Below, in pieces: positions 22,416 to 58,131 of a stretch of 64,000 nucleotides of DNA. Origin of the DNA: Candidatus Bathyarchaeota archaeon. Its GTDB lineage: Archaea; Thermoproteota; Bathyarchaeia; TCS64. A program made the position numbers and the translations under genes. The notes below the pieces were generated by a model. It searched no databases. It saw nothing but the letters and a program-made list of their open reading frames with translations, and was not told the origin of the DNA. The first letter of the stretch is position 1, and every line of letters begins with the position of its first letter. The stretch lies in contig CAVYLP010000006.1 in NCBI GenBank assembly GCA_963769425.1, positions 384,001 through 448,000 of the forward strand, in the 5' to 3' direction.

Positions 22416-23720
22416 ATGACCGAGTACCAGCAGGCAGTCGAGTGGCTCTTCCAGATCAGGAGATTCGGCCCCGAGAGGACCCTCGACCCGATAATCCGCC
22501 TAGCCGGGCTCCTCGACGACCCCCAGAACAGCTACAAATCCATACACATCACCGGCACAAACGGTAAGGGCAGCACCTCAGCGATGATCGCAAGCATCCT
22601 ACGCGCTGCTGGCTACCGAGTTGGACTCTTCACCAGCCCACACCTAGAGCGATTCACCGAGAGGATAATGGTCGACGGCGAGGAGATACCCGAGGAGGAC
22701 GTCGTGAGGCTCACCAAGCTCATTAAGCCCCTGGTCGAGAGGCTCGACGCCGAGCCTCAGCGCGTCCACCCACTCTTCTTCGACATCGTTACCGCCATGG
22801 CCCTTAAGTACTTCGAGGAGATGCGTGTCGACTTCGCCGTTCTCGAGGTCGGTATGGGAGGACGCCTCGACGCCACTAACATCGTCAACCCCCTCGTCTC
22901 CGTCATCACGAACATCAGTCTCGAGCACACACATGTCCTCGGCGACACCGTCCTCAAGATCGCATACGAGAAGGCGGGTATAATCAAGCCCTATAGCGTC
23001 CTCGTCACAGCGACACAGGACGACTCCGTCTACGCCCTATTCGAGGAGAGGTGCAGGAGCATTGATACCGAGATACACAGGGTCGGGGGCGACATAACTT
23101 TTCGCAGGCTAGGGGGAGACCTACACTACCAGAGTTTCAAGGTCAAAGGGCTCAAGGGGAGCTACACCCTCCGGACCCCCCTCCTCGGGGGCTACCAGCT
23201 CTATAACGCGGCGACTGCCATCGGGGCCGTCGAATCTTTGAGTTACAGCAAAATCGAGATATCGGAAACCGCCATCGCCCGAGGCCTCGCCGAGGTCAGT
23301 TGGCCCGGCAGACTAGAGGTCATGCAGGAGCACCCACTCGTCGTCCTCGACTCCGCCAAGGACGCGGAGGCGACGCGCGCCCTCAGTGAAGCCGTCGACG
23401 AGCTGCCCCACCGGAAGCTCATAGCAGTCGTCAGCATAAGCAGCGATAAGAACATCCCAGAGATGATCCGGCACATAGCCTCCGTCGCGGACGAGTTCAT
23501 AGTCACGAGCCACAGCGTCATGGGACGGGCTGCGGAGAGGGATTTCATCGGCGGCGAGGTAGACAAGTACGTTTTACCCTGGGTTTCGGTGGAGAAGGTG
23601 GAGGACGCTGTGAACGCCGCCTTGGTCAAGGCGGGGAGGGACGACATGATCCTCGTGGCGGGCTCTGTCTTCGTTGTAGGCGAAGCTAGGAGAATCTGGA
23701 AAGGCACGGGCAAGTCCTAA
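22416..23720 (+). CDS. folC: Folylpolyglutamate synthase/dihydrofolate synthase
   Basis: 'HITGTNGKGST', 'TSPHL', 'LEVGMGGRLDATN', 'WPGRLE'. Confidence 0.93.
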   Translation: MTEYQQAVEWLFQIRRFGPERTLDPIIRLAGLLDDPQNSYKSIHITGTNGKGSTSAMIASILRAAGYRVGLFTSPHLERFTERIMVDGEEIPEEDVVRLTKLIKPLVERLDAEPQRVHPLFFDIVTAMALKYFEEMRVDFAVLEVGMGGRLDATNIVNPLVSVITNISLEHTHVLGDTVLKIAYEKAGIIKPYSVLVTATQDDSVYALFEERCRSIDTEIHRVGGDITFRRLGGDLHYQSFKVKGLKGSYTLRTPLLGGYQLYNAATAIGAVESLSYSKIEISETAIARGLAEVSWPGRLEVMQEHPLVVLDSAKDAEATRALSEAVDELPHRKLIAVVSISSDKNIPEMIRHIASVADEFIVTSHSVMGRAAERDFIGGEVDKYVLPWVSVEKVEDAVNAALVKAGRDDMILVAGSVFVVGEARRIWKGTGKS

Positions 23721-26032: not shown

Positions 26033-27008
26033 GTGTTGCCAGCTGTCTCCCTCGTCGTCCCGGTCCACAACGAGGCGGCGAAGATGTGGTCAAGCACCGT
26101 GGCCCTCAGGAAGCACCTTAGAAGGGTGAGCGAGTCCTTCGAGATCATCCTAATTGAGAACGGCAGCAGCGACGACACCCAGTTGGTTGCGGAGGCGCTT
26201 AGCTCAAGGTTCCACGAGATAAGGTGTCTGACGCTGCCACGAGGCCTCCCTCGGAGACGCACTTAAACTGGGAATCGATTCAGCCTCAGGAGACAAGGTG
26301 CTGTACTACCCCCTGGACCTCTCTGTCGGCCTCGAGTTCATCCCGAAGAGCCTCAAGCTCCTAGACGAGTACGACCTTGTGGTCGCATCGAAGAGACGCG
26401 GAGACGACGGTAGGCCAATGATCAGAAGGATTACGAGCATCAGCTACCATGGGCTGGTGAAGCTTTTCTACAGGACACACATTTCGGACACGACATGTGC
26501 CAAGGCGTTCAAGAAGGAGGCTATCAGCAGGCTTATCGACTGCTTCCCTGGTGCGAGCAGGGTCTTCGAGACGGAAATGCTTGTTGAGGCTGAGCGGCGG
26601 GGCATGAGGATAGTTGAGGTGCCTGTGAGCGTCGTCGAGAGTCGGAGGAGCCGAGAGACCCTTCTAAGGAAGGTGGAGACGAAGCTAGAGGATCTATTAT
26701 CCGCAAGGCTGGACAGACTCGCACTATTCTCGGGCGTCCCAGTGCTCCTAGCGGGCTTACTCTGGCTGATCATACTCGCCCTCGAGAAGCTCGGCTCACC
26801 CCTCTCCGGATTCCTGAGCCCCTATAGCCTCCTAGCCGCTGTCCTACTCATTTTGGGAGGATTCCAGATAGCGACATTCGGCCTACTATCGAGGCTGATG
26901 CTGCAGCTTCGGGGGGAGGTTACTAGGAGGAATGGGCGTGTGCTAGATGAGTCCGAGGAGCTGCCAGTAGGGTATTCCGGCGACGAGGACGATGAGGACC
27001 GATACTAG
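26033..27008 (+). CDS. Glycosyltransferase family 2 with C-terminal TM helices (frameshift near 26240)
   Basis: 'SLVVPVHNEA', 'ENGSSDDT', then second frame 'SDTTCAKAF', 'FETEML'. Confidence 0.78.
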
Positions 27009-28352
27009 GCTCAGCACGACACCGTACTTTATCATCTGCTGTTCCGTGAACCATCCCTCCGTGTGGAAGATGATGTTGGGTATCGTGTTCACTGGGAGGA
27101 TGACCGCTATCGGAGCGAGCAGTGCGACTGGAAGAGCTGTGAGGATCGGATTCGCGCCTTGGATGTTCGTTAACCCTATGACCACAGGGATCATCACGGT
27201 CGCGTAAACCGTCGTGCTCGTGAAGATCAGGTGTAGCAGCATTGCAACCAACACTATGAATCCGACAAACACTAGCGGGGAGAGGCTGCCTAGACCGACG
27301 GACTCGAATATCCTCACGGCTACGGGGTCCAAGGCCCTGTACTTCGCAACGACCCTGGCGAGGAACATGGAGGCAGCGAATAGGACGATGCTCCCCCATG
27401 GCACGGTCCCGCTGAATTTGCCTATCTCCATCACCCCCATTTGGGGGAGGAAGAGGAGCAGGCTCAGCCCCAGGCTTATCAGCCCGGCGTTGAGTGGGTT
27501 GTAGCGTTCGGTAATCCACAGGATTAGGGCAATGATGAAGGTCACGGCGACGACCATCTCCCTCTTGGAGACGGGGCCGAGCTGGTCCCTGATCCCGCAG
27601 ATCCTGTCGTAGGTCTCCTTCGAGGCCTCTATCTCGGGCTTGAACATCCGTGTTATGAGCAGGTAGCTCGCCGCGAGGAGTAGGACAGTTAGGGGGAAAG
27701 CCATTCTGAACCACTCCCCCCAGTCGAGGCGGAGGCCCGTGGATACGAGGATGTACTCCGCTGAGATCGGGTTGGGGACTGTGGCGGTTAGGAAGGCCGT
27801 GCTGCAGATGTTGTTCGCCGCCATTGCCATAAGCATCACCGCGGCGCCGAATCGGCTGCGCCCCTTCTCGACACCGAACGCCTCCACGAGCCCGATGCAG
27901 ATGGGGAGTATTATGAACGCTTTCGCAGTGGTACTCGGGCTCAGCGGAGCGATCGCGAGGCTAGCGACGGCGATCGCGAGGATGATGTTCCTCGGTTTGC
28001 ACCCCATTGAGGTCATTATCATGAGTGCGATCCGCTTTCCGAGTCCGCTTACCTCCATCCCCTTCGCAAGGACGAAGCCGCTCAGGATTATCCAGAGCCC
28101 ACTCGCGCCGTAGGTATTGAAGAGGCTGCTGATGAAGTCACCAACGTTGAGGCTCGCCTCGAAGACGGCGATGAGGGCAATGATGAGGAGGCTCGACTCA
28201 AGGTGTCGCTTAGGGTAGAGGCTCCAAAGGACCAGGGCGAGGAAGACCACACCGAGGATCTGGTTCTCGATGATCCCCCCGACGGCGAGGTAGCCAAATA
28301 TAAGAATCGTGAGGGCGGTGGCCGCATACTTGACAGCGTCCACCAATCTCAT
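26943..28352 (-). CDS. DASS/SLC13 anion (sulfate/dicarboxylate) transporter
   Basis: 'SGLGKRIAL', 'PSTTAK', 'FLTATVPN', 'LPVNTIPN'; many TM segments. Confidence 0.85.
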   Translation of the reverse strand: MRLVDAVKYAATALTILIFGYLAVGGIIENQILGVVFLALVLWSLYPKRHLESSLLIIALIAVFEASLNVGDFISSLFNTYGASGLWIILSGFVLAKGMEVSGLGKRIALMIMTSMGCKPRNIILAIAVASLAIAPLSPSTTAKAFIILPICIGLVEAFGVEKGRSRFGAAVMLMAMAANNICSTAFLTATVPNPISAEYILVSTGLRLDWGEWFRMAFPLTVLLLAASYLLITRMFKPEIEASKETYDRICGIRDQLGPVSKREMVVAVTFIIALILWITERYNPLNAGLISLGLSLLLFLPQMGVMEIGKFSGTVPWGSIVLFAASMFLARVVAKYRALDPVAVRIFESVGLGSLSPLVFVGFIVLVAMLLHLIFTSTTVYATVMIPVVIGLTNIQGANPILTALPVALLAPIAVILPVNTIPNIIFHTEGWFTEQQMIKYGVVLSLVSVLIVLVAGIPYWQLLGLI

Positions 28353-28414
28353 GGTGTACCATGTTGATGGTGTATGTATAATTCTTATGAAGGTGGAAAT
28401 TCTAATCCGTAACT

Positions 28415-28440
28415 CCGATATGCATGATTTGACGCTTCGA
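28415..28440. promoter_or_regulatory. Putative regulator box YCGATATG-N10-(CATATCGR), copy 1 (degenerate right arm)
   Basis: CCGATATG-catgatttga-CGCTTCGA just upstream of TATA-like TTTATC. Confidence 0.45.
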
Positions 28441-28484
28441 AGCGTTCTTTATCGGGTGACTGGGGTTACCTGATCAGTGGTTTA

Positions 28485-29006
28485 ATGGCTAAGAACATCT
28501 GGATAGCCCGCGATTACGCCGCTTGCAGTGGCTGCAAGCGTTGCGAGATCGCGTGCAGCATGAAGTTCGAGGGCTGGATATGGCCCGAGGCGTCGATGGT
28601 CAGGGTCTTCATGCCCTTCCCCGGGCTAGAGGTTCCGCATCTCTGCTCTCAGTGCGACGATTACCCATGCGTGGGTAGCTGCCCGACCGTTGCCCTCTCG
28701 GTAGATCCCGTAACGAAGGCGGTCATAGTCGACAAGGAGAAGTGTATAAGCTGCGGCAACTGCATACGCGCCTGCCCAGGCAACGTACCGATCCTCCACC
28801 CGGAGACGAACAAGGCCACCATCTGCAACCTATGCAACGGCGACCCCGAGTGCGTAAAGGTCTGCAAGGAGGCGGGCTACAACGCACTCATACTCGTGGA
28901 CGAGGGACCGGGACCGAACAGGAAGCTGTTTAGCCGCCACCCCGTCGAGGTGGCGAAGGAGCTCGCTGTCTACTTCTTCGGCGAGAAGGGTGAGGAGGTA
29001 ATCTAG
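28485..29006 (+). CDS. Polyferredoxin small subunit (WOR5-S-like) 1
   Basis: Four 4Fe-4S Cys motifs (CSGCKRCEIAC, CSQCDDYPC, CISCGNCIRACP, CNLC). Confidence 0.9.
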   Translation: MAKNIWIARDYAACSGCKRCEIACSMKFEGWIWPEASMVRVFMPFPGLEVPHLCSQCDDYPCVGSCPTVALSVDPVTKAVIVDKEKCISCGNCIRACPGNVPILHPETNKATICNLCNGDPECVKVCKEAGYNALILVDEGPGPNRKLFSRHPVEVAKELAVYFFGEKGEEVI

Positions 29007-29007
29007 G

Positions 29008-30867
29008 ATGACGAGTGGATACGCGGGCAAGTTCCTAGACGTCGACCTCACGAAGGAGAAGATCAAGGAGATCAGCTTCGACGACAAGACCCTCCAGCAG
29101 TACTTCGGTGGGCGCGGGCTCGCGGCTAAGATACTCTGGGACAGGGTGGGCAAGAAGTGGGAGACACTCGACCCCTACGCCCCGGAGAGCCCGCTCATCG
29201 TCCTCACAGGCCCAATGACGGGCATCTACCCCGGCGGCAGGATATGCGTCTCGGGGAAGAGCCCGGTCAGCATGGGCACGGTAGGCTCAACGGCGGCGAC
29301 GGAGTTCGCGCACGAGCTACGATGCGCAGGATACGACGGCGTCATCTTCACGGGTAAGTCGGAGAAGCCCGTCTACCTCCTCGTGACGAACGACGGAGCA
29401 GAGATCAGACCAGCGGAGCACCTCTGGGGCACCGTCGGCGAGGAGACCATCAAGATTCTCAACAAAGAAGTCACGGAGGAGATGAGAAAGCGCAAGCCAA
29501 ACGTTGGTATCTGGCGCGAACCCGGCATGGTCTATATCGGCCCCGCTGGCGAGAACATGGTCCGCAATAGCGGCGTGATGAGCAAAATATGCCACGCAGC
29601 CGGGTACGGAGGCTACGGCGCCCTCATGGGCTCGAAGAAGCTCAAGGCAGTCGTCGCCAAGGGCAGGGGAAAGACCCCCGCCGCGGACGCCCCCGAGGCC
29701 GCGAAGTTGCTCTGGAAGAAGGCACACCAGATGCTCATAGCCAACAGCGAGATGCGCCGATACGGCACGGGCTACCTCGGATACACCGTCGGCGCCAGCA
29801 ACAGCAGCGAGCCCATCAGGAACTGGCAGACAGAGTGGCACAACGAGAAGAGCTACGCCGGCCCACGCTTCGAGGCGTACTGGGTCAAGAAGAAGTGGTC
29901 CGACTACAACTGCACCACGAACTGCATGAAGGTCAGCTGCATAAAGAACGGCAAGTGGAAGGGCGACATAACCGACCTCCCCGACTACGAGCTGCAGGCC
30001 TACTGCGGTACCAACATGGGCATCTTCGAACCCGTAGACAACATCCACATGAGCGCCCTAATCGACAACCTCGGCCACAGCGGAATCAACGGCCCCAACA
30101 CTATGGGCTTCGCCGCCGAACTCTACCAGAGGAAGATTCTCACAAAGAAGGACATAGGCTTCGAGCTCAACTGGGGTGACACCGATGCCTTTACGAAGCT
30201 CGCCTGGATGATGGCGAAGCGCGAGGGCATAGGCGACGTCCTAGCCGAGGGCACATACCGTGCCGCTATCAAGATCGCCGAGATGAAGGGGCTCCCGAAG
30301 GAGGAGCTGCTAAAGTACGTCGTACACGTCAAGGGCATCGAGATCGGCGCACACGGGACTCGCAGCGACCAGGACTACGTTCACGACGCCAGCTACGCGG
30401 GCAGCGTCCAGGGCGGGGACCACACATCCACCATCGGCGACGGCTACACTGACATGAGCGACGCCATCTTCGCCGACTGCGGCGTATTCTGCGACTTCTG
30501 CAGGACCACCCGCGAGCTGGAGTTCGACTTCGCCAAGGCCATCACGGGCTTCCCGATCACGGTCGAGAACTGGAGGAAGGAGACCGGCCCAAGGATAGTG
30601 ACGCTCCAGAAGGCTCTGCTGCTCCTCGGCGGACCTGACATGAAGTGGGAGCCTGTAAAGGACGACGACAACCCACCGAGGTTCTATGAGCCACTCCCCG
30701 AGGGGCCCTTCAAGGGCAAGACGACGGACAAGAAGCTCGTCGACCAGAAGCTGCAGGCTTACTTCGAGACGCTAGGCTGGGACGAGCGCGGGATCCCGAC
30801 GAAGGAGACGCTGAAAAGGCTGGACCTAGCCGACGTCGAGCCCTTCATGAAGAAGATGAGGGAATAG
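29008..30867 (+). CDS. Tungsten AOR-family oxidoreductase, WOR5-like paralogue 1
   Basis: 'GGRGLAAKIL', 'SGKSP', 'IGPAGEN', 'MGSKKLKA', DxxCxxxC cluster motif, 'LGWDERGIP'. Confidence 0.92.
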   Translation: MTSGYAGKFLDVDLTKEKIKEISFDDKTLQQYFGGRGLAAKILWDRVGKKWETLDPYAPESPLIVLTGPMTGIYPGGRICVSGKSPVSMGTVGSTAATEFAHELRCAGYDGVIFTGKSEKPVYLLVTNDGAEIRPAEHLWGTVGEETIKILNKEVTEEMRKRKPNVGIWREPGMVYIGPAGENMVRNSGVMSKICHAAGYGGYGALMGSKKLKAVVAKGRGKTPAADAPEAAKLLWKKAHQMLIANSEMRRYGTGYLGYTVGASNSSEPIRNWQTEWHNEKSYAGPRFEAYWVKKKWSDYNCTTNCMKVSCIKNGKWKGDITDLPDYELQAYCGTNMGIFEPVDNIHMSALIDNLGHSGINGPNTMGFAAELYQRKILTKKDIGFELNWGDTDAFTKLAWMMAKREGIGDVLAEGTYRAAIKIAEMKGLPKEELLKYVVHVKGIEIGAHGTRSDQDYVHDASYAGSVQGGDHTSTIGDGYTDMSDAIFADCGVFCDFCRTTRELEFDFAKAITGFPITVENWRKETGPRIVTLQKALLLLGGPDMKWEPVKDDDNPPRFYEPLPEGPFKGKTTDKKLVDQKLQAYFETLGWDERGIPTKETLKRLDLADVEPFMKKMRE

Positions 30868-30906
30868 TCCCTCCCCCTTATATTTCGTCATCCTACTTTT
30901 CCCCTG

Positions 30907-31845
30907 ATGGACCTTCTCAGCGGGTTCAGGGGCAGCCTTCTCGGTCTGGCTATAGGGGATTCACTCGGCGCTCCTGTCGAGTTCGAGCCGAGGGGCAGTT
31001 TCCCACCCATTACGGGTCTACGTGGCGGCGGGCCGTTTAACCTGAAGTCTGGGGACTGGACGGACGACACATCACTCGCCCTCTGCCTCGCCGAGAGCCT
31101 CATTGAGAAGAGGGGATTCGACCCCCACGACCAGGCCGAGAGGTATGTTAGATGGTGGAGGGGGGGCTACATGAGCTGCACGGGGAACTGCTTCGACATA
31201 GGGAACACAACGAAGGCGAGCCTACAGAGGTTCATGGACACCGGAAACCCCTACTCGGGGCCGACGAGTCCCGAGACGGGGAGCAACGGGTCCCTCATGA
31301 GGTTGGCGCCGGTGCCCCTGTTCTACCACGATGCGCCTGGGCGGGCTGTCGAGTACTCTGGGCTCAGCTCGAAGGTGACGCACGGAGCTGATGAGGCTGT
31401 AGACTCGTGCCGTTACCTCGGGGCACTCATCGTCGGGGCGCTAAGGGGCGAAGCGAAGGAGACCCTCATCTCAGGGAGATATGAACCAGAGAAGAGAATC
31501 TGGAAAAAACAACCGCTAACCGCTAAAGTCGACGCTGTCGCAGAGGGTTCTTTCCGGCGCTTAGAGCCACCGGAGATCAGAGCACAGGGATCGGCGGTGA
31601 AGACACTCGAGGCCGCACTCTGGGCGTTCGCGAAGGGGTCATCTTTCGAGGAGGGGTGTCTGCTCGCGGTCAATCTGGGTGACGACTCCGATACAGTGGG
31701 CGCAGTCTACGGACAGCTTGCGGGAGCCTACTATGGGATCGAGGAAATCCCCGCCAAGTGGCTTGAAGGACTCTCTTGCATAGAACTGATCGAATCGGCC
31801 GCCGAGAGGCTGTTCAAAGCATCACAGGCACGCATTTCGGTGTAA
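30907..31845 (+). CDS. ADP-ribosylglycohydrolase (DraG/ARH family)
   Basis: 'GDSLGAPVEF', 'WTDDT', 'NGSLMR', 'GDDSDTVGA'. Confidence 0.9.
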   Translation: MDLLSGFRGSLLGLAIGDSLGAPVEFEPRGSFPPITGLRGGGPFNLKSGDWTDDTSLALCLAESLIEKRGFDPHDQAERYVRWWRGGYMSCTGNCFDIGNTTKASLQRFMDTGNPYSGPTSPETGSNGSLMRLAPVPLFYHDAPGRAVEYSGLSSKVTHGADEAVDSCRYLGALIVGALRGEAKETLISGRYEPEKRIWKKQPLTAKVDAVAEGSFRRLEPPEIRAQGSAVKTLEAALWAFAKGSSFEEGCLLAVNLGDDSDTVGAVYGQLAGAYYGIEEIPAKWLEGLSCIELIESAAERLFKASQARISV

Positions 31846-31883
31846 TTAAGAGATTTTAACCCATTTCCGTATTTTCCTCCGAA

Positions 31884-31909
31884 TCGATATGTTTTAACAT
31901 GTATATCGG
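31884..31909. promoter_or_regulatory. Putative regulator box, copy 2
   Basis: TCGATATG-ttttaacatg-TATATCGG upstream of the second ferredoxin/oxidoreductase operon. Confidence 0.55.
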
Positions 31910-31982
31910 TTTCTTCGATGCGTCCAGAGAAGCCTTTTATCCCGATAATCGCCTAAAATCCATAGTTAATTCTGGTGAGACG

Positions 31983-32504
31983 ATGAGCAAACCCATCTGG
32001 ATAGCCCGAGACTACGCCGCCTGCAGCGGGTGCAAGCGGTGCGAGTTAGCGTGCAGCATGAAGTTCGAGGGATGGATGTTCCCCGAGGCCTCAATGGTCA
32101 GGGTCTTCATGCCCTTCCCCGGCGTCGAGGTACCACACCTCTGCACGCAGTGCGCCGACTACCCCTGCGTCAAATCCTGCGCCCCGAAGGCACTTAGTGT
32201 CGACCCCGTCACAACCGCCGTCATCGTAGACAAAGAGAAGTGCATCAGCTGCGGCAGCTGCATAAAGGCGTGCCCCGGCCACGTGCCGTACCTCCACCCG
32301 GAGACGAACAAGGTGGTCATATGCAACCTATGCAACGGGGACCCCGAGTGCGTGAAGGTCTGCGTCGAGGCGGGATACAACGCCCTAACCGTCGTCCCGG
32401 AGGGACCGAACGTTAACAAGAAGCTCTTCAGCCGGCCCCCCATCGAGGTGGCGAAGGAGCTCGCGGTATTTTTCTTCGGCGAAAAGGGTGAAGAGGTAAT
32501 CTAA
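31983..32504 (+). CDS. Polyferredoxin small subunit (WOR5-S-like) 2
   Basis: Close paralogue of 28485..29006; ATG at 31983 after GGTGAG. Confidence 0.9.
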   Translation: MSKPIWIARDYAACSGCKRCELACSMKFEGWMFPEASMVRVFMPFPGVEVPHLCTQCADYPCVKSCAPKALSVDPVTTAVIVDKEKCISCGSCIKACPGHVPYLHPETNKVVICNLCNGDPECVKVCVEAGYNALTVVPEGPNVNKKLFSRPPIEVAKELAVFFFGEKGEEVI

Positions 32505-32505
32505 G

Positions 32506-34374
32506 ATGCCCGGAGGATACGCTGGAAAGTACCTCGACATCGACCTCACCAAGAGGAAGATCAAGGACACGACCTTCGACGACGAGACGCTTGAGATGTT
32601 CTTCGGCGGCCGCGGCCTCGCCGCGAAGATACTCTGGGACCGCCTCGGGAAGAAGTGGGGGGACATAGACTCACTCGGCCCCGAGAACCTCTTCCTCGCC
32701 CTCACAGGGCCCATGACGGCCATCTACCCCGGCGCTAGGATAATGTGCTCCGGCAAGAGCCCACTCAGCAACGGCACAGTGGGATCAACCGCCTCAACCG
32801 AGTTCGCCTCCGAGATACGGATGGCGGGATACGACGGCGTCATAGTCACCGGGAAGGCGGACGAGCCCGTCTACATCCAAGTAACGAACGATGGCGGGGA
32901 GATCAAGAGCGCCAAGCAACTCTGGGGAACCGTTGGCGAAGACACGATAAAGATCCTCAACAGGGAGGTCACAGCGGACCTCACCAAGAAGAAGCCAAAC
33001 ATCGGACTCTGGAAGGAGCCCGGCATCATCTACACCGGCCCAGCCGGGGAGAACATGGTGCGCAACGCCGCGGTGATGACGAAGATCTGCCACGCCTGCG
33101 GCTACGGTGGCTACGGTGCCCTGATGGGGTCGAAGAACCTCAAGGCCATAGTCGCGAAGGGCAGGGGGAGGCTCCCACCGGCCAACGCCCCAGAGGCGAC
33201 CAAGCTCCTCTGGAGGAGGACCCACGAGTATCTCATCAACCAGGGCAGGATGCGCCGCTGGGGCACAGGCTACGGCGGCTACGCCACTGGCGCCGACACC
33301 AGCTCCGAGCCCGTGAAGAACTGGCAGGAGGAGTGGCACGACGACAAGAACATGGGCGGCCCCAAGTTCGAGAACAAGTTCTGGGTCAAGAAGAAGTGGA
33401 GCGACTTCAACTGCACAACCAACTGCATGAAGGTCAGCTGCATAAAGTCTGGGAGATGGAAGGGCGACATCACCGACATGCCAGACTACGAGCTTGAGGC
33501 GTACTGCGGGACCAACCTCGGCATCTTCGATGCAGCAGATAACATCCACATCAGTACCCTGATCGATAAGCTGGGACACAGCGGCATCAACGGCCCCAAC
33601 ACGATGGGTTTCGCAGCCGAGCTCTACCAGAGGGGAATCCTCACCGAGAAAGACTTCGGGTTTAGGCCCATCTGGGGCGACGCCGAGTCTATGGACAAGC
33701 TCGCCTGGCTCATCGCGAAGCGGGAGAAGATCGGGGACATCCTCGCAGAGGGCACCTACCGAGCCGCGATAAAGATCGCGAAGATGAAGAAGATGGAGCC
33801 GGAGGAGCTGCTCAAGTTCGCGGTGCACGTCAAGGGCATCGAGATTGGCGCACACGGCACCCGGAGCGACGCCGACTACACGCATGACATCTCCTACGCC
33901 GCAAGCGTACAGGGCGGGGACCACACCTCCACGACCACAGACGGATTCACCGACATGAGCGGCGCAGTCTTCACCGACTCCGCCGTCTTCTGCAACTTCT
34001 GCTACTTCGCCGTCCCACAGGAGCTCGTCTTCGACTACGCGAAGGCGATAACAGGCTTCCCGATCTCACAAGGCAGCTGGAGGAGCGTCACAGGGCCCAG
34101 GATAGTCACCCTGCAGAAGGTTCTGCTGCTGCTCGGCGGCCCCGACGTGACATGGGAGCCGGTCAAGGACGACGACAACCCGCCGAGGTTCTACGAGCCG
34201 CTCCCGACGGGCCCGTTCAAGGGGAAGACGACCGACCACAAGAAGGTCGACGAGAAGCTACAGACCTACTTCACCACCCTCGGATGGGACAAGATGGGCA
34301 TCCCTACGAAGGAGACGCTGAAGAAGCTGGGCCTGAGCGACTGCGAGACGGCCATGAAGAAGCTGAGGGAGTGA
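32506..34374 (+). CDS. Tungsten AOR-family oxidoreductase, WOR5-like paralogue 2
   Basis: Same motifs as paralogue 1; 622 aa. Confidence 0.92.
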   Translation: MPGGYAGKYLDIDLTKRKIKDTTFDDETLEMFFGGRGLAAKILWDRLGKKWGDIDSLGPENLFLALTGPMTAIYPGARIMCSGKSPLSNGTVGSTASTEFASEIRMAGYDGVIVTGKADEPVYIQVTNDGGEIKSAKQLWGTVGEDTIKILNREVTADLTKKKPNIGLWKEPGIIYTGPAGENMVRNAAVMTKICHACGYGGYGALMGSKNLKAIVAKGRGRLPPANAPEATKLLWRRTHEYLINQGRMRRWGTGYGGYATGADTSSEPVKNWQEEWHDDKNMGGPKFENKFWVKKKWSDFNCTTNCMKVSCIKSGRWKGDITDMPDYELEAYCGTNLGIFDAADNIHISTLIDKLGHSGINGPNTMGFAAELYQRGILTEKDFGFRPIWGDAESMDKLAWLIAKREKIGDILAEGTYRAAIKIAKMKKMEPEELLKFAVHVKGIEIGAHGTRSDADYTHDISYAASVQGGDHTSTTTDGFTDMSGAVFTDSAVFCNFCYFAVPQELVFDYAKAITGFPISQGSWRSVTGPRIVTLQKVLLLLGGPDVTWEPVKDDDNPPRFYEPLPTGPFKGKTTDHKKVDEKLQTYFTTLGWDKMGIPTKETLKKLGLSDCETAMKKLRE

Positions 34375-34415
34375 CCTTTTCCTTCTTTTTAGTGGAAAAT
34401 TAGGAGAATGAGAAA

Positions 34416-36284
34416 ATGCCTGGTGGATACGCGGGGAAGTTTCTGGACGTCGACCTCACCAAGAGGAAGATCAAGGACACGACCTTCGACGACGAGACAC
34501 TTGAGATGTTCTTCGGTGGCCGCGGCCTCGCCGCGAAGATACTGTGGGACAGGATAGGTAAGAAATGGAGCAAGGTCGATGCTCTCGGGCCCGATAACCT
34601 CTTAATCGCCCTAACGGGCCCAATGACAGGCATCTACCCCGGCGGCAGGATATGCGTCTCGGGGAAGAGTCCCATGAGCAACGGCACCGTGGGGTCGACC
34701 GCGTCCACCGAGTTCGCCCACGAGCTGAGGTGCGCCGGCTACGACGGCGTCATCGCCTCGGGGAAGGCCGACGAGCCCGTCTACATCCAGGTCACGAACA
34801 ACGGGGGTGAGATCAAGCCCGCGAAGCACCTATGGGGGAAGGACGGGGAGCAGACACTCATCGCCCTTAACAAGGAGGTTGACGCCGTCCTCGCCAAGTC
34901 GAAGCCAAACATCGGCCTCTGGCGCGAACCCGGAATGATCTACATAGGTCCGGCTGGGGAAAACCTCGTTCGAAACGCCGCGGTTATGACAAAGCTCTGC
35001 CATGCCTGCGGCTACGGCGGATACGGCTCCGTAATGGGAAGCAAGAACCTTAAGGCCATAGTCGCCAAGGGGCGCGGCAGGATGCCAGCCCCAGACGCCC
35101 CCGAGTCCGCGAAGCTGATGTGGAAGAGAACACACGAGCACCTCATCGCCCGGAAGCAGTTCAGGAGATGGGGCACGGGCTTCGGTGGTTTCTCCTTCGG
35201 CAACGCCACGAGCAGCGAGCCCATAAGGAACTGGCAGGAGGAGTGGCATGACGAGAAGAGCATCGGCGGCCCGATGTTCGAGACTAAGTATTGGGTCAAG
35301 AAGAAGTGGACCGACTTCAACTGCACAACGAACTGCATGAAGGTCAGCTGCATAAAGTCAGGCCCCTGGAAGGGGGACATCACCGACATGCCCGACTACG
35401 AGCTCGAGGCCCACTGTGGAACCAACTTCGGCATCTTCAACCCTGAGGAGATAATCCACCTCAGCACACTCTGCGACCTACTCGGCCACAGCGGGATCAA
35501 CGGGATGAGCGCTATGAGCTACGCGGCGGAGCTCTACCAGCGGGGCATCCTCACCGAGGAGGACATAGGCTTCAAGCTCAAGTGGGGTGATGCCAAGGCC
35601 TTCGACCGCCTGATGCGAATGGTCGCAAACCGCGAGGGCATCGGCGACGTGATAGCCGAGGGAACCTACAGGGCCGCCATCAAGATAGCAGAGATGAAGG
35701 GGATGAAACCCGAGGAACTGCTCAAGTACGCAGTGGTTGTAAAGGGGATAGAGGTCGGGGCGCACGGCACGAGAAGCGACGCCGACTTTGCCCACGACAT
35801 AGGCTACGCCGCCAGCGTACAGGGTGGGGATCACTCGAGCCTCGTCTACGACGGGTACACCGATATGTCGGGGAGCATCTTCGCCGACTGCGGCGTCTTC
35901 TGCAGCTTCGCCTACAACGGCGTCCCTCAGGAGCTTGTCTTCGATTTCGCCAAGGCCATCACGGGGTTCCCGATAGACATCGAGAGCTGGAGGCGTGTCA
36001 CCGGCCCGAGGATCATCACATTACAGAAGGTGCTGCTGCTCCTCGGGGGACCGGACGTGACGTGGGAACCTATAAAGGATGATGACAACCCGCCCCGCTT
36101 CTACGAGCCACTCCCCGGAGGCCCATTTAAGGGCAAAACCACCGACAAACAGAAAGTCGACAAGAGGCTAAAGACCTACTTCGAAACCCTCGGATGGGAC
36201 GCTAGGGGCATCCCGAAGACGGAGACTCTCGCGAGGATGGGGCTCAACGACTGCGAGCTCTCGATGGCGAAGCTTAGGCGCTGA
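34416..36284 (+). CDS. Tungsten AOR-family oxidoreductase, WOR5-like paralogue 3
   Basis: Same motifs; 622 aa. Confidence 0.92.
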   Translation: MPGGYAGKFLDVDLTKRKIKDTTFDDETLEMFFGGRGLAAKILWDRIGKKWSKVDALGPDNLLIALTGPMTGIYPGGRICVSGKSPMSNGTVGSTASTEFAHELRCAGYDGVIASGKADEPVYIQVTNNGGEIKPAKHLWGKDGEQTLIALNKEVDAVLAKSKPNIGLWREPGMIYIGPAGENLVRNAAVMTKLCHACGYGGYGSVMGSKNLKAIVAKGRGRMPAPDAPESAKLMWKRTHEHLIARKQFRRWGTGFGGFSFGNATSSEPIRNWQEEWHDEKSIGGPMFETKYWVKKKWTDFNCTTNCMKVSCIKSGPWKGDITDMPDYELEAHCGTNFGIFNPEEIIHLSTLCDLLGHSGINGMSAMSYAAELYQRGILTEEDIGFKLKWGDAKAFDRLMRMVANREGIGDVIAEGTYRAAIKIAEMKGMKPEELLKYAVVVKGIEVGAHGTRSDADFAHDIGYAASVQGGDHSSLVYDGYTDMSGSIFADCGVFCSFAYNGVPQELVFDFAKAITGFPIDIESWRRVTGPRIITLQKVLLLLGGPDVTWEPIKDDDNPPRFYEPLPGGPFKGKTTDKQKVDKRLKTYFETLGWDARGIPKTETLARMGLNDCELSMAKLRR

Positions 36285-36330
36285 CCTTTTTCATCAAGCT
36301 TTATCTCCCCCCGTAATGCGGTTGGTTACG

Positions 36331-36606
36331 ATGAAGGTCACAGTACGCGTCTTCGGGGATGTCTCACAGGTCATCGGCAGGAGACACGAGGTTGAGCTCC
36401 AGGAGGGCGCGACTATAACGACGATCGCCGCGAGGGTCGGCGAGAAGACGGGGCAGCGACAGGGCTACCTCGGCGACTTCCACGTCGGGGGCAAGGACCT
36501 AGCCATACTCCTCAACGGTAAGAGCATAGATTTGCTCAACGGCGTCCAGACAAAGCTCAAAGACGGCGACGAGGTCGTCGTCATGCAGCCGACAGCCGGC
36601 GGCTAG
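36331..36606 (+). CDS. MoaD/ThiS/SAMP ubiquitin-like sulfur carrier
   Basis: Beta-grasp pattern, 'LKDGDEV', C-terminal GG. Confidence 0.88.
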   Translation: MKVTVRVFGDVSQVIGRRHEVELQEGATITTIAARVGEKTGQRQGYLGDFHVGGKDLAILLNGKSIDLLNGVQTKLKDGDEVVVMQPTAGG

Positions 36607-37085
36607 AGCCTTATTAATACTTCTGCCTCAATCTCCACGGGTAGGCCGAAGGGCAGCTCAGCCATTCCCACCGCGGACCGCGCGTGTTTACCCGCCTCCT
36701 TCCCCCAGACCTCGATAATAAGATCGGAGAACCCGTTGATGACTGCGGGCTGATTTTTAAATCCGGGCGCAGAGTTCACCATCCCGAGGACCTTGAGCCA
36801 CTTCTCGACCCTATCCAAGTCGCCGAGCTCCTGCTTGAGGCTAGCTAGGATAGCCAGCCCCGTGAGGCGCGCCGCATCGTAGGCCTGGTCCTGCGTCACT
36901 TCGCTCCCAACCTTCCCGTACACCTGAGAGAGAGTACCGTCGGGATTCGTCGGACCGTGCCCCGAGACGTATGCCCTGTTCTCGTGCAACCTGACAAAGG
37001 GGAAAGTCTGGCGGAATGAGGCTGGGACCTTCGTAGGTTCCGGGAGAGTTATCCCAAGTTCAGATAGACGCGCTTCGATCCTCAT
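36603..37085 (-). CDS. RidA/YjgF family protein
   Basis: 'YVSGHGP', 'NGFSDL', 'HARSAVG', 'VEIE'; probable ATG 37085. Confidence 0.88.
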   Translation of the reverse strand: MRIEARLSELGITLPEPTKVPASFRQTFPFVRLHENRAYVSGHGPTNPDGTLSQVYGKVGSEVTQDQAYDAARLTGLAILASLKQELGDLDRVEKWLKVLGMVNSAPGFKNQPAVINGFSDLIIEVWGKEAGKHARSAVGMAELPFGLPVEIEAEVLIRL

Positions 37086-37176
37086 GTAGTTCGATACTGG
37101 TTCCCATCGCACCCCATTTAAAATCACCTGATAAGAACACGAGCCCCGAATGTCAATCTTTTTCCCACACCACAAA

Positions 37177-37202
37177 TCGATATGCAACATGAAACATCTC
37201 GA
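37177..37202. promoter_or_regulatory. Putative regulator box, copy 3
   Basis: TCGATATG-caacatgaaa-CATCTCGA upstream of the fourth oxidoreductase gene. Confidence 0.55.
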
Positions 37203-37243
37203 AGGCTATACCCTTATCAGTCTTCACAATTCTCTGGTATCAG

Positions 37244-39091
37244 GTGATTCAATCCTTGAAGGGCTGGACCGGAAACCTCCTCAGGGTGGACCTCACGAAG
37301 GGGAAAGCCGTCAGGACTGGGTACTCTGAAGAACTCGCCGTGAAGTTCATCGGCGGACGCGGCCTCGCCGTGAAGCTACTCTGGGACGAGTTGAAGCCGG
37401 GGACCGACCCCCTCGGCCCTGACAACATCCTAATCTTCGCCGGAGGCCTCTACGCGGGGCTACCCACGGTCAACAGCGGGAAGATGGTAGTCGCGGCTAA
37501 GAGCCCCCTCACGGGCGGCTACGGCGACGGAAACCTCGGGACGATGGCCTCCCCCAATATGAGGAAGGCCGGCCTCGATGGCATAGTCCTAACCGGCAAA
37601 GCGGCGAAACCAACCTACCTCTGGATAAACGACGACGAAATAGAGTTCAAGAGCGCCTCAGACCTCTGGGGCTTGGATAGCTACGAGACTGAGAGGAAGC
37701 TGAAGAAGGAACACGGTGCCGATACGGGTGTCCTCACTATAGGGCAGAGTGGCGAGAACCTCAGTCGCTTCTCGACTGTCGTCTCTCAGGAGGGGCGAGC
37801 AGGTGGCCGCCCCGGCATGGGCGCCGTAATGGGAAGCAAGAATCTCAAGGCGGTCATTATCAAGGGCACGGGTGAGATACCCGTCGCCGATAAGGAGACC
37901 CTCCAGAAGCTGGGGAGGGAGGGCTTCCAGGACCTCCTCAAGAGGCCCAACTACAAGCACTGGAAGGCACAGGGCACGATGGCCACCGTCGAGTGGTGCC
38001 AGGCGGCCTCGACACTCCCCACCCGTAACTTCAGGGAGGGCGTCTTCGACCACAGCAAGGAGATCGATGGCAACACGATGGAAGCATCCACTGTCAAGCA
38101 GCGCGGCTGCCCCAACTGTAACATGATCTGCGGGAACGTCATCCTCGACACAAACGGTGAGGAGTCGGAGCTTGACTATGAGAACGTCGTTATGCTGGGC
38201 AGCAACATCGGCGTCGGGGACCTCAAGCAGGTGGGACGCCTCAACAGGATGTGCGACATGCTCGGCCTAGACACTATCAGCGCAGGCAGTGCCCTCGGCT
38301 TCGCGATGGAGTGCAGCGAGAAGAAGCTCGTCGAGGGCCTCGACCTCAAGTGGGGCGACTTCGAGGGCTCCCAGAGGCTCCTCGAGGACATGGCCTATAT
38401 GCGTGGACACGGCGCCCTATTCGGAATGGGCACGAAGGTTGCAGCCGAGAAGATCGGCCACGACTCCATTGACTACGCGATGCAGGTGAAGGGCCTAGAG
38501 TGCAGCGCCTACGATTGCCACCTGTGTCCGGGGATGAGCCTCAGTTTCGGCACAAGCCCCATCGGTGCTCACCACAAGGACGCCTGGGTAATCAGCTGGG
38601 AGATCAGCAGCGGCACACGCGAGGAATACGGTCCAGAAAAAGCGGACAAGGTCATCGAGTTCCAGCGCATCCGCGGCGGCATGTTCGAATGCCTCGTAGC
38701 CTGCAGGTTCCCTTGGATCGAGCTCGGCTTCGAGGTCGAGCACTACCCCAAGTACATGGAGGCGGCGACCGGCCTCAAGTGGACCCTCGATGACATGTGG
38801 GCTCTCGGTGACAGGGTCTACGCCCTGATCCGTGCCTTCTGGGTAAGGGAATTTGAGGGCAAATGGGATAGGAAGATGGATTACCCGCCGGAGCGCTGGT
38901 TCAGGGAACCCCTCACTGAGGGCCCCCTCGCGGGGAAGAAGCTGGACAGGGCGAAGTACGACGAGTTGCTCTCCGCCTACTATGAGAAGAGGAGATGGGA
39001 TGACAGAGGCATCCCTACGAGATCCATGATGGTTAGTCTTGGACTCGAGAAGGAAGCTGAGGGACTAAATAAGATAGTAAGTCTCAATTAA
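37244..39091 (+). CDS. Tungsten aldehyde:ferredoxin oxidoreductase (FOR/AOR-like)
   Basis: 'KSPLTGGYGDGNLG', 'GRPGMGAVMGSKNLKA', CPNCNMIC, 'DYEN', 'GAHHKDAW'. Confidence 0.92.
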   Translation: MIQSLKGWTGNLLRVDLTKGKAVRTGYSEELAVKFIGGRGLAVKLLWDELKPGTDPLGPDNILIFAGGLYAGLPTVNSGKMVVAAKSPLTGGYGDGNLGTMASPNMRKAGLDGIVLTGKAAKPTYLWINDDEIEFKSASDLWGLDSYETERKLKKEHGADTGVLTIGQSGENLSRFSTVVSQEGRAGGRPGMGAVMGSKNLKAVIIKGTGEIPVADKETLQKLGREGFQDLLKRPNYKHWKAQGTMATVEWCQAASTLPTRNFREGVFDHSKEIDGNTMEASTVKQRGCPNCNMICGNVILDTNGEESELDYENVVMLGSNIGVGDLKQVGRLNRMCDMLGLDTISAGSALGFAMECSEKKLVEGLDLKWGDFEGSQRLLEDMAYMRGHGALFGMGTKVAAEKIGHDSIDYAMQVKGLECSAYDCHLCPGMSLSFGTSPIGAHHKDAWVISWEISSGTREEYGPEKADKVIEFQRIRGGMFECLVACRFPWIELGFEVEHYPKYMEAATGLKWTLDDMWALGDRVYALIRAFWVREFEGKWDRKMDYPPERWFREPLTEGPLAGKKLDRAKYDELLSAYYEKRRWDDRGIPTRSMMVSLGLEKEAEGLNKIVSLN

Positions 39092-54909: not shown

Positions 54910-55968
54910 TTAGGGTTTGAGGTAGGCCTTCAGATACTTCACCATGGGCTTGCCGAGGGCCTTCTCGACGGGCTCGTATATCTCAGGGTACCGGTTGCCG
55001 TCGCCGACCTTGATCTTCTCCTTAGGGACGTTGACGAGGTAGACCTCGTCCCCCTTCTTGAGGGCGGCGCTTGTGACGGGGTTCCCCTCGCCGTCGAAGG
55101 TGGTCATCAGGTCGGGGAACGTCGCGAGACGTTTCCCCCCGTTCTCAAGGGTCATGTACTCGTTGACGTAGCTTAGCTCCCACGTCTCCTCCCCCTTGAT
55201 GGTCATGACGCCGACGTCGAAGCCTCCCCTCGCCTCAGTTGTCATCTCGACTATCTTGCCGGTTTCGATGAGTTCGCCGCCGAGGAACTTGGCCGCCGCC
55301 TTGACAGCTGGTTCACCCTTCTTCGCTTTGAGGTAGGCCTTGCCGAGGTCGATGGCCTGCTGGATGGCCCCAGGGGCGCCGTGCTCGAGGCACCATTCGA
55401 CCGGTATCGGGTCCCTAGCCATGGCTATGAGGGCCTTGCAGTCGCCCGCCATGAATCGGATCTGATTGCTCGTGCGCTGGAGGGTGCCCCAGCAGATCAT
55501 CTCGGCGCCTTCGGTGGCACCCGCCTTGACGGAGTTGTAGTCGAGGCGGTGTATGCCCATGCTGCCCATCATCGCAGTGGGGTGAGCTCTACCGTCGCCC
55601 GGGGTATCCACGACGGGCAGCCCAAGGGCCGCGGCGGGTATCCAGCCGCCGAAGCTGTTCTGGCCACCGTTCTCAGCGGCGATGACGCCGTCGAACTCTA
55701 CGCCCGCCTCCCAGAGCATCTGTACAGCGCGTATGAAGTGGCGCGCCTTCGTCTCTCCTTTCTGGGTGGGGGCACCGAGGGCAGCGACGGTGATCACATT
55801 CCACTCGGGTGGCGTCTCCTCGGGCGACCAGAGCTCGACGCCTCCGAGCTCCATTGCGAGCATCCCAGCAGCTCGCCCCTCCGAGGGCCAGCCACCACCG
55901 CCCCCACCGAGGATAGTCCCACCGATTGTCAGCGCCTCAACGTCCTCAACCGTGATCTTTCTTGGCAT
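54910..55968 (-). CDS. DUF917 family protein
   Basis: 'GGTILGGGGGG', 'GAP', 'ENGGQNS', 'DGRAHP', 'NEYM', 'FPDL'; own ATG at 55968. Confidence 0.8.
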   Translation of the reverse strand: MPRKITVEDVEALTIGGTILGGGGGGWPSEGRAAGMLAMELGGVELWSPEETPPEWNVITVAALGAPTQKGETKARHFIRAVQMLWEAGVEFDGVIAAENGGQNSFGGWIPAAALGLPVVDTPGDGRAHPTAMMGSMGIHRLDYNSVKAGATEGAEMICWGTLQRTSNQIRFMAGDCKALIAMARDPIPVEWCLEHGAPGAIQQAIDLGKAYLKAKKGEPAVKAAAKFLGGELIETGKIVEMTTEARGGFDVGVMTIKGEETWELSYVNEYMTLENGGKRLATFPDLMTTFDGEGNPVTSAALKKGDEVYLVNVPKEKIKVGDGNRYPEIYEPVEKALGKPMVKYLKAYLKP

Positions 55969-56030
55969 GATTATCCAGCTAGAAAAAGCGGGGGACCAGA
56001 TATAATACTTGAACCCCGGGGAAAGTGTGG

Positions 56031-58131
<2,101 letters not shown>

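Follow-up and report, generated by a model that had tools for sequence, protein, structure and literature searches.

The closest described relative of the system treated here is the tungstoenzyme WOR5/ASOR of Pyrococcus furiosus, which comes from a hyperthermophile, is the one characterised member of its clade, and has a physiological role that is still debated. As described in PMC13328260 and PMC12096430, it oxidises many aldehydes (hexanal with a Km of 180 μM), using ferredoxin as carrier, and it also oxidises taurine, with a Km of 112 μM. The review PMC12096430 further gives three Cys and one Asp as the ligands of its [4Fe-4S] cluster, and names Tyr199, Glu328, His446 and His469 as second-shell residues; of these, Tyr199 is unique to the clade, standing in place of an Arg, and His446 takes the place of a conserved Tyr. 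Here, we describe an array of three large-subunit genes (WorL1, WorL2 and WorL3) and two small-subunit genes (WorS1 and WorS2), found within a 64-kb stretch of DNA (the ‘window’) that derives from a metagenome-assembled genome (MAG) of the Bathyarchaeia, 2.55 Mb in size and 91% complete. The array consists of WOR5-type enzymes of a known kind, which are widespread, and present in multiple copies, in Bathyarchaeia. We suggest, with moderate confidence, that the most likely function of these class II WOR enzymes is to oxidise aldehydes with ferredoxin as electron acceptor, and that their substrate ranges have diverged. A search across titles and the beginnings of abstracts turned up no literature on these Bathyarchaeial arrays.

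The first pair of genes, WorS1 (28485-29006, 173 amino acids) and WorL1 (29008-30867, 619 amino acids), lies on the forward strand, as do the second pair, WorS2 (31983-32504) and WorL2 (32506-34374, 622 amino acids), and the third large subunit, WorL3 (34416-36284, 622 amino acids), for which there is no dedicated WorS gene. The open reading frame (ORF) called for WorS2 spans 31899-32504 and includes 28 extra N-terminal codons that have no counterpart in WorS1; since the ATG at 31983 is preceded by GGTGAG, this is probably the real start, giving a protein of 173 amino acids, the length over which WorS1 and WorS2 are 83% identical. WorL1 shares 72% identity with WorL2 and 71% with WorL3, and all three large subunits match both AFOR domains over their full length (AFOR_N, PF02730, E 1e-52 to 1e-57; AFOR_C, PF01314, E 1e-65 to 1e-67); the small subunits match 4Fe-4S dicluster families in Pfam.

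When compared with all PDB chains, WorL1, WorL2 and WorL3 score 718.7, 720.2 and 725.9 bits to the large subunit of P. furiosus WOR5 (6x6u_A), which is the best match by some 490 bits; the next-best structures reach 214-231 bits (AOR, for instance, 230.8 bits for WorL1), with AOR, FOR, BamB, AorB and WOR83 among these lower matches. WorS1, in turn, scores 186.2 bits (E 5.3e-54) to the Fe-S subunit of the same enzyme (6x6u_B), with AorA as the runner-up at 88.6 bits. Both WorS1 and WorS2 carry 16 Cys in four motifs, as expected of the adjacent polyferredoxin of a class II WOR, such that the pairing of WorL with WorS and the four WorS cluster motifs are shared with P. furiosus WOR5 (6X6U, 6X1O; class II, clade 40). 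Homologues from Thermococcus are approximately 51-52% identical to the window proteins (blastp). By sequence comparison, then, WorL1, WorL2 and WorL3 belong to the WOR5/ASOR clade. A preliminary description of this DNA, made from the letters alone, had already called the enzymes WOR5-like, and had outlined the biochemistry of the P. furiosus enzyme; the assignment is borne out by the matches to solved structures, and the outlined biochemistry agrees with what PMC12096430 and PMC13328260 report.

The same description had drawn attention to an Asp-substituted cluster motif, which is indeed present (SDYNCTTNC in WorL1, SDFNCTTNC in WorL2 and TDFNCTTNC in WorL3), as are the other motifs that it quoted, a GTGxxGxxxG loop and a DYELxAx segment. 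The substitution is, however, not peculiar to the locus: in an alignment to 6X6U, P. furiosus WOR5 itself reads D-Y-G-C-P-V-N-C at this point, and the Asp motif is therefore a known character of the whole clade, already described for WOR5. Across an alignment of 85 Bathyarchaeial and 12 Thermococcales/Thermotogota-type large subunits, the Asp and the two Cys of D-x-x-C-x-x-x-C, together with a third, distal Cys, are invariant (97/97), as are Tyr199, Glu328, His446 and His469 (85/85 and 12/12, respectively), so that every one of these positions is shared with P. furiosus WOR5. By comparison, the four second-shell positions are occupied by R, E, Y and E in the FOR orthologue encoded farther along the window. 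Going by PMC12096430, the cluster of the Bathyarchaeial WorL proteins would likewise have an Asp and three Cys as its ligands. It had been anticipated that sulfonate-contacting residues might prove to be missing; this is not the case, at least for those named in that review, since all are invariant.

Two phylogenetic trees, each with FOR as outgroup, place the enzymes in relation to their kin. With FastTree, and 98 large subunits (12 Thermococcales-type and 85 Bathyarchaeial sequences, plus FOR), the Bathyarchaeial clade (support 97) is sister to the Thermococcales-type clade (support 99); a quick IQ-TREE run with 42 rows returns the same sister relation, with values of 97 for the Thermococcales-type and 96 for the Bathyarchaeial clade. 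A family phylogeny had been proposed as a check on the WOR5 assignment, and it does group the array enzymes with Thermococcales-type WOR5 as against FOR, albeit with FOR as the only outgroup and with P. furiosus WOR5 itself not in the tree. WorL1, WorL2 and WorL3 each fall into their own orthogroup (support 100, 99 and 99), together with orthologues in related MAGs, and the duplications are therefore older than this genome; the WorL2 and WorL3 groups are joined at 95 by FastTree, and the order of the three is unresolved in IQ-TREE. We also note that WorS-WorL genes on contigs binned as Krumholzibacteriaceae and Patescibacteria (loci L046 and L065) nest inside the Bathyarchaeial clade; these contigs are probably mis-binned.

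Other described members of the wider family are more distant. The FOR gene of the window (37244-39091, forward strand) matches P. furiosus FOR (PDB 1B25) over its full length, with 777.7 bits and E 6.8e-233 to 1b25_A, and has the standard C-x-x-C-x-x-x-C motif; it forms a separate transcription unit, lies outside the coordinates given in the preliminary description, and is not a member of the WOR5 clade. AorABC of Aromatoleum aromaticum (8C0Z, a class III WOR) combines an AOR-family large subunit with a polyferredoxin to which WorS is homologous (88.6 bits), but its large subunit is matched with just 127-154 bits, and no gene for an AorC-like FAD/NAD subunit is found in the array. As for P. 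furiosus WOR5 itself, the Bathyarchaeial locus differs in its host, in having three tandem paralogues, one of them without its own WorS, in the sequence of the GTGxxGxxxG loop, and in its neighbours, which are MoaD-like, FOR and DASS genes here, but EamA and DUF116 genes in Thermococcales.

Arrays of this type are common. In a survey of 300 other Bathyarchaeia genomes, with genes of the WOR5 clade called at E <= 1e-150, matches were found in 136, often two to four per genome; at closer range, 64/70 genomes of the window's family and 16/17 of its genus are positive. Related public loci come nearly all from Bathyarchaeia MAGs, and metagenome runs from peat and sediment contain parts of the locus, with shares of at most 0.29; among the runs listed for positions 27500-37400, none was of RNA. 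A recurrent gene order emerges from 65 fetched loci: a GT4 gene on the minus strand and a glycosyltransferase-like gene on the plus strand, then a variable slot and one to three WorS-WorL units, followed by the MoaD-like gene, sometimes a RidA gene on the minus strand, FOR and, farther on, DUF6754. Where at least 2.6 kb of downstream sequence is available (32 loci), the MoaD-like gene follows the array in 20 and FOR is present as well in 15. On the upstream side of the first WorS, 39 loci offer 1.6 kb of sequence or more, and in these the slot holds a DASS-family transporter gene in eight, an MscS-type channel gene (PF00924) in 16 and neither in 15. The mechanosensitive channel encoded in the slots that lack DASS is of about 260 amino acids (for example at L014:6034-6873, L037:8544-9329 and L049:5601-6386).

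The genome of the window itself contains a fourth copy of the WOR5 clade, at C1:50154-52562 on the minus strand of another contig (equivalent to L106:3155-5563). This copy reads as a single WorS-WorL ORF of 802 amino acids, in which the WorS portion departs from the remaining WorS sequences over its final ~30 codons; on account of this divergent tail, we set aside a true fusion, and the joining is probably due to a frameshift, whether genuine or an assembly error. At C6:473321-475286 (minus strand) of the same genome, an AOR-family gene appears as two overlapping ORFs (AFOR_C 23-166 and 165-385), which may reflect a frameshift or a pseudogene.

Synthesising these findings, we propose a model in which the array comprises two complete units, WorS1-WorL1 and WorS2-WorL2, together with the ‘orphan’ WorL3, followed by a cofactor-maturation protein of the ‘WorX’ type and by FOR. 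Substrate would be oxidised at the tungsten-bis-pyranopterin site of each WorL, with electrons passing by way of its Asp/3-Cys [4Fe-4S] cluster to the four [4Fe-4S] clusters of WorS, and from there to ferredoxin. The physiological job of the array would then most likely be to convert various aldehydes to acids, with ferredoxin as acceptor, in fermentative metabolism, and the paralogues would cover different substrates. The sequences directly show gene content, clade membership, conserved residues, synteny, phyletic distribution and shared promoter motifs; that the enzymes use tungsten, are active, act on these substrates, share a subunit and work in this direction is what we infer.

At 74 of 619 positions, residues are at least 80% conserved within the WorL1, WorL2 and WorL3 orthogroups (11, 8 and 6 rows, respectively) yet different between them, and several of these positions adjoin catalytic motifs. 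The GTGxxGxxxG loop, in the region where published descriptions of the family place the usual Thr243, reads GTGYLGYTVG, GTGYGGYATG and GTGFGGFSFG in WorL1, WorL2 and WorL3, such that it differs in each paralogue and from Thermococcus; the segment around Glu328 reads DYELQAY, DYELEAY and DYELEAH, with group-specific residues at +2 (Q/E/E) and +4 (Y/Y/H) from the Glu. Three residues before His446 (position 446 of WorL1), the three groups have I, I and V, and in WorL3 only, GINGPNTMGF is changed to GINGMSAMSY. At the level of sequence, these group-specific changes would fit a diversification of substrates among the paralogues.

A partner for WorL3 is a further question, for which our model allows either WorS2 or no small subunit at all. 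Five related MAG loci (L003, L026, L029, L033 and L043) show the same order, WorS2-WorL2-WorL3 without a third WorS, making the sharing of one small subunit by the second and third paralogues, as suggested in the preliminary description, plausible. Because this order recurs, and because the WorL3-type gene of L044 does have its own WorS, we think that the partner gene of WorL3 has probably been lost and that WorL3 makes use of WorS2 instead; it might otherwise work alone, by analogy with the first preparation of P. furiosus WOR5 (PMC13328260).

Several points tell against aldehyde oxidation by WOR5-clade enzymes as the reading to prefer. The trees have FOR as their sole outgroup, and P. furiosus WOR5 itself is not among their rows. 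All of the named residues being conserved, the sequences would accommodate a sulfonate role just as well as one in aldehyde oxidation, and the oxidation of sulfonates is the one biochemically new property of the clade's sole characterised member. Lastly, a divergently transcribed transporter gene stands beside WOR5-type operons in two distant lineages; this recurrence is the one observation that still speaks for a transport link, and it hints at a role for some substrate or product that is carried across the membrane. We would describe sulfonate oxidation by the array enzymes as possible but unsupported.

The transporter in question is encoded at 26943-28352 on the minus strand, and is a DASS-family anion transporter of 469 amino acids that matches Na_sulph_symp (PF00939, E 3.7e-68) and passes TIGR00785 (230.2 bits, with a cut-off of 198.6); a divergent promoter region of 132 bp (28353-28484) separates it from WorS1. 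Its presence had led the preliminary description to propose a sulfonate/aldehyde catabolic island, with DASS importing sulfonate or exporting sulfite. On such a reading, the WOR5-like enzymes would cleave aliphatic sulfonates to aldehyde and sulfite and then oxidise the aldehyde, and DASS might also exchange sulfonate for sulfite. There is some encouragement for this idea: P. furiosus WOR5/ASOR binds and oxidises taurine (PMC12096430, PMC13328260), all of the residues named for sulfonate chemistry are invariant, and the nearest solved relatives of the transporter, DiT1 and LaINDY, are exchangers, as would suit antiport. Of the 18 matches in the 300 genomes, 16 are full-length orthologues (the others being a C-terminal remnant and a paralogue of 26% identity); 12 of these are divergent from WorS, three are not (L093, L095 and L101), and one sits at a contig end, so that 12 of the 15 informative loci share the arrangement seen here. 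In Thermococcales, moreover, another family of transporter occupies the same position: a gene of the EamA family is divergent from WorS in 4/6 loci analysed with Pfam and is one gene away in a fifth; in the sixth, the transporter gene found upstream is of the SBF family. The Thermococcales WOR5 loci that bear EamA are L066, L068, L075, L077 and L078, and a DUF116 gene recurs nearby.

Against this stands the distribution of the transporter. DASS occurs in only 18/300 Bathyarchaeia genomes (11/17 in the genus and 15/70 in the family), as compared with 136/300 for the WOR5 clade, and is found upstream of just eight of the 39 arrays, as set out above. In the congeneric genome G112, the gene corresponding to the Mur-ligase gene at 22416-23720 of the window directly abuts WorS1; the whole block of pyruvyl-transferase, GT4, glycosyltransferase-like and DASS genes is missing, and WorS1-WorL1 and the promoter elements of WorS1 are kept. 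Conversely, one genome (G048) has DASS and no match to the WOR5 clade, and two further public DASS loci (L083 and L084) have no WorS-WorL genes nearby. When 13 WOR5 loci of Thermococcales type were searched with the window proteins, no DASS, MoaD, FOR or ARH match was obtained. The DASS-positive genomes are mostly kin within one genus, and the linkage may simply be an inherited position. DASS is thus a lineage-restricted and dispensable neighbour, whose linkage to the array is conserved only in a narrow set of relatives, and the sulfonate/aldehyde catabolic island that had been built on it does not hold up; DASS-WOR5 synteny in other genomes, proposed as a check, is kept neither in G112 nor in the Thermococcales-type loci.

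No further sulfonate-pathway gene is seen in the 64-kb window, and no match to a sulfite reductase of the NIR_SIR type was found in the genome, which at 91% completeness is to be read as ‘not found’ rather than ‘absent’; there is a single match to the TauE family, one that also matches in 13/14 control genomes. To our knowledge, DASS includes no known sulfonate transporter. Taking both sides together, we consider it unlikely that the locus is a sulfonate catabolic island.

A different possibility is that DASS is coupled to the array but carries carboxylates, either for the uptake or exchange of di- or tricarboxylates or for the export of acids produced from aldehydes and semialdehydes by the WOR5-like enzymes and FOR; we see this as a doubtful proposition, though one with something in its favour. 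The best solved relatives of the transporter are dicarboxylate exchangers and symporters, namely DiT1 (9mcr, 6.5e-27), LaINDY (6wtw, 2.4e-25) and VcINDY (3e-20), a feature search returned clusters of the YbhI-like kind, and the gene adjoins WorS divergently in most of its informative loci. The phyletic and dispensability data (18/300, 8/39 and G112) count against it just as they do against a sulfonate carrier, and the promoter motifs belong to WorS1 and remain where DASS is gone. The hairpin tips, too, are out of keeping. Sodium-coupled carboxylate symporters of the DASS family (VcINDY type) have Ser-Asn-Thr at both tips. DASS exchangers have SNS/SVS and SGT/SGA; the motifs of the window protein, PSTTAK and TSTTVY, place S-T-T in both and so fit neither pattern. 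By profile, then, the protein has the full-length fold shared with DiT1, LaINDY and the uncharacterised YbhI group, at E-values of 1e-25 to 1e-27 and with divergent STT hairpins, and its sequence is not one from which the substrate can be deduced.

It might also be asked if DASS imports tungstate, or some other tetrahedral oxyanion, for the four tungstoenzyme genes that it adjoins along with their cofactor-maturation gene. The wider ion-transporter superfamily does contain reported oxyanion carriers. The genome, however, already has two ABC systems for tungstate or molybdate, a ModABC system (ModA 143.8 bits, against a cut-off of 62.5) and a Tup-like one (TupA-like 75.5 bits, TupB-like 148.7 bits, with an ATPase whose best match is WtpC), and most Bathyarchaeia that have the same enzymes do without DASS; we regard this role as highly improbable. 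The Tup-like system lies at C6:~801968-804757 (L124:469-3258), and its TupA-like component is apparently split into ORFs of 196 and 136 amino acids. On the far side of the transporter gene, its 3′ end (minus strand) overlaps by 66 bp (26943-27008) with that of the glycosyltransferase-like gene at 26298-27008 on the plus strand; comparable overlaps of the two 3′ ends are seen in L002 and L043.

Returning to the ferredoxin-linked aldehyde oxidoreductases of our preferred reading, candidate control elements link the units that encode them. In the WorS1 promoter, the heptamer CGATATG (28416-28422) is followed by a perfect 14-bp palindrome, ACGCTTCGAAGCGT (28432-28445), that sits directly upstream of the TATA-like TTCTTTATC. 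The element TCGATATG is found upstream of WorS2 (31884-31891), with TTTTATC, and again in the FOR promoter (37177-37184); ahead of both genes, (T)CGATATG precedes a TTTATC-like box by 20-45 nt, an arrangement that is kept in relatives, and TCGATRTG occurs in the 64-kb window at these two promoters only. Across the genome, the composite pattern CGATRTG-N18-45-YTTWTC has 18 matches, of which only four are followed, at a distance of 10-90 nt, by an ORF that is 100 or more amino acids long, these being WorS1, FOR and two unrelated genes; WorS2 escaped this filter since its ORF call extends upstream. The pattern suggests common control of the WorS1, WorS2 and FOR units through these candidate sites, and the elements persist in the absence of DASS, as in G112. 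The 12-mer core of ACGCTTCGAAGCGT occurs once in the 2.55-Mb genome, where 0.21 occurrences would be expected; it is exact in L001, L003, L026 and L043, and has one or two bases changed in L002, L004 and the DASS-less G112. We had entertained the palindrome as a genome-wide operator, but, with its core present only once in this genome, no regulon is defined by it.

The genes that the preliminary description had listed (three paralogous large subunits, two polyferredoxins, the MoaD-like gene and the divergent DASS) are all in place; its inventory had passed over an ADP-ribosylglycohydrolase, a RidA-like gene, the FOR orthologue and the fourth WOR5-clade copy of the genome. The MoaD-like gene (36316-36606, forward strand) encodes a ThiS/MoaD-like protein of 96 amino acids (PF02597, E 1.6e-11) that ends in ...PTAGG, with the C-terminal Gly-Gly, and scores 48.5 bits with TIGR01687, just under the cut-off of 49.5. 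It corresponds to the ThiS-like ‘WorX’ of PMC13328260, which that paper predicts to act in pterin biosynthesis. The RidA/YjgF-like gene (36603-37190, minus strand; 195 amino acids, PF14588, E 1.5e-12) is confined to the closest relatives.

The ADP-ribosylglycohydrolase, of the DraG/Tri1 type (30907-31845, forward strand; 312 amino acids), is a genus-restricted insertion between WorL1 and WorS2. It matches PF03747 over its full length (E 2e-81), as do the DraG/Tri1 ADP-ribosylarginine hydrolases, and scores 281.8 bits with the Tri1 model and 146.1 bits with the DraG model, both below their equivalog cut-offs; its acidic motifs are presumably of the kind that the family uses for metal binding. 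Orthologues are present in 9/17 congeners and in none of the 283 other genomes, seven of the nine lying directly after WorL1, with one at a contig end beside WorS2 and one elsewhere, and they occur both with and without DASS. The match in G219 contains an internal TAG.

Elsewhere in the window are genes for thermosome subunits, TFB, FBPase, an ammonium transporter and cell-envelope glycosyltransferases, and, farther along, for a 2-oxoacid:ferredoxin oxidoreductase, an aminotransferase and an ADP-forming acyl-CoA synthetase; the last three make up a set such as would be expected of an amino-acid fermenter. One ORF of 985 amino acids (54910-57867, minus strand) joins POR_N, PFOR_II and TPP_enzyme_C to N- and C-terminal domains resembling S-Me-THD, an unusual fusion.

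Finally, for those who annotate such loci, the array carries a warning that the DASS neighbour should not be read as a component of the pathway. At the more speculative end, it could be imagined that peat and sediment Bathyarchaeia use an expanded set of ASOR-type enzymes, with copy numbers that reach four or more in a genome, for the oxygen-independent desulfonation of environmental organosulfonates, that DASS serves as a sulfonate/sulfite exchanger in the window's genus, and that CGATATG ties WorS1, WorS2 and FOR into one regulon; we offer this as a long shot. If true, it would represent a third anaerobic route of C-S cleavage, beside glycyl-radical enzymes and Xsc, in an archaeal group that ranks among the most abundant in sediments. 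The Bathyarchaeial arrays provide, in any event, a large and ecologically relevant test set for the question of aldehyde versus sulfonate oxidation, and comparative enzymology could conveniently start from the three diverged paralogues, which share an operon context and of which one has no small subunit.

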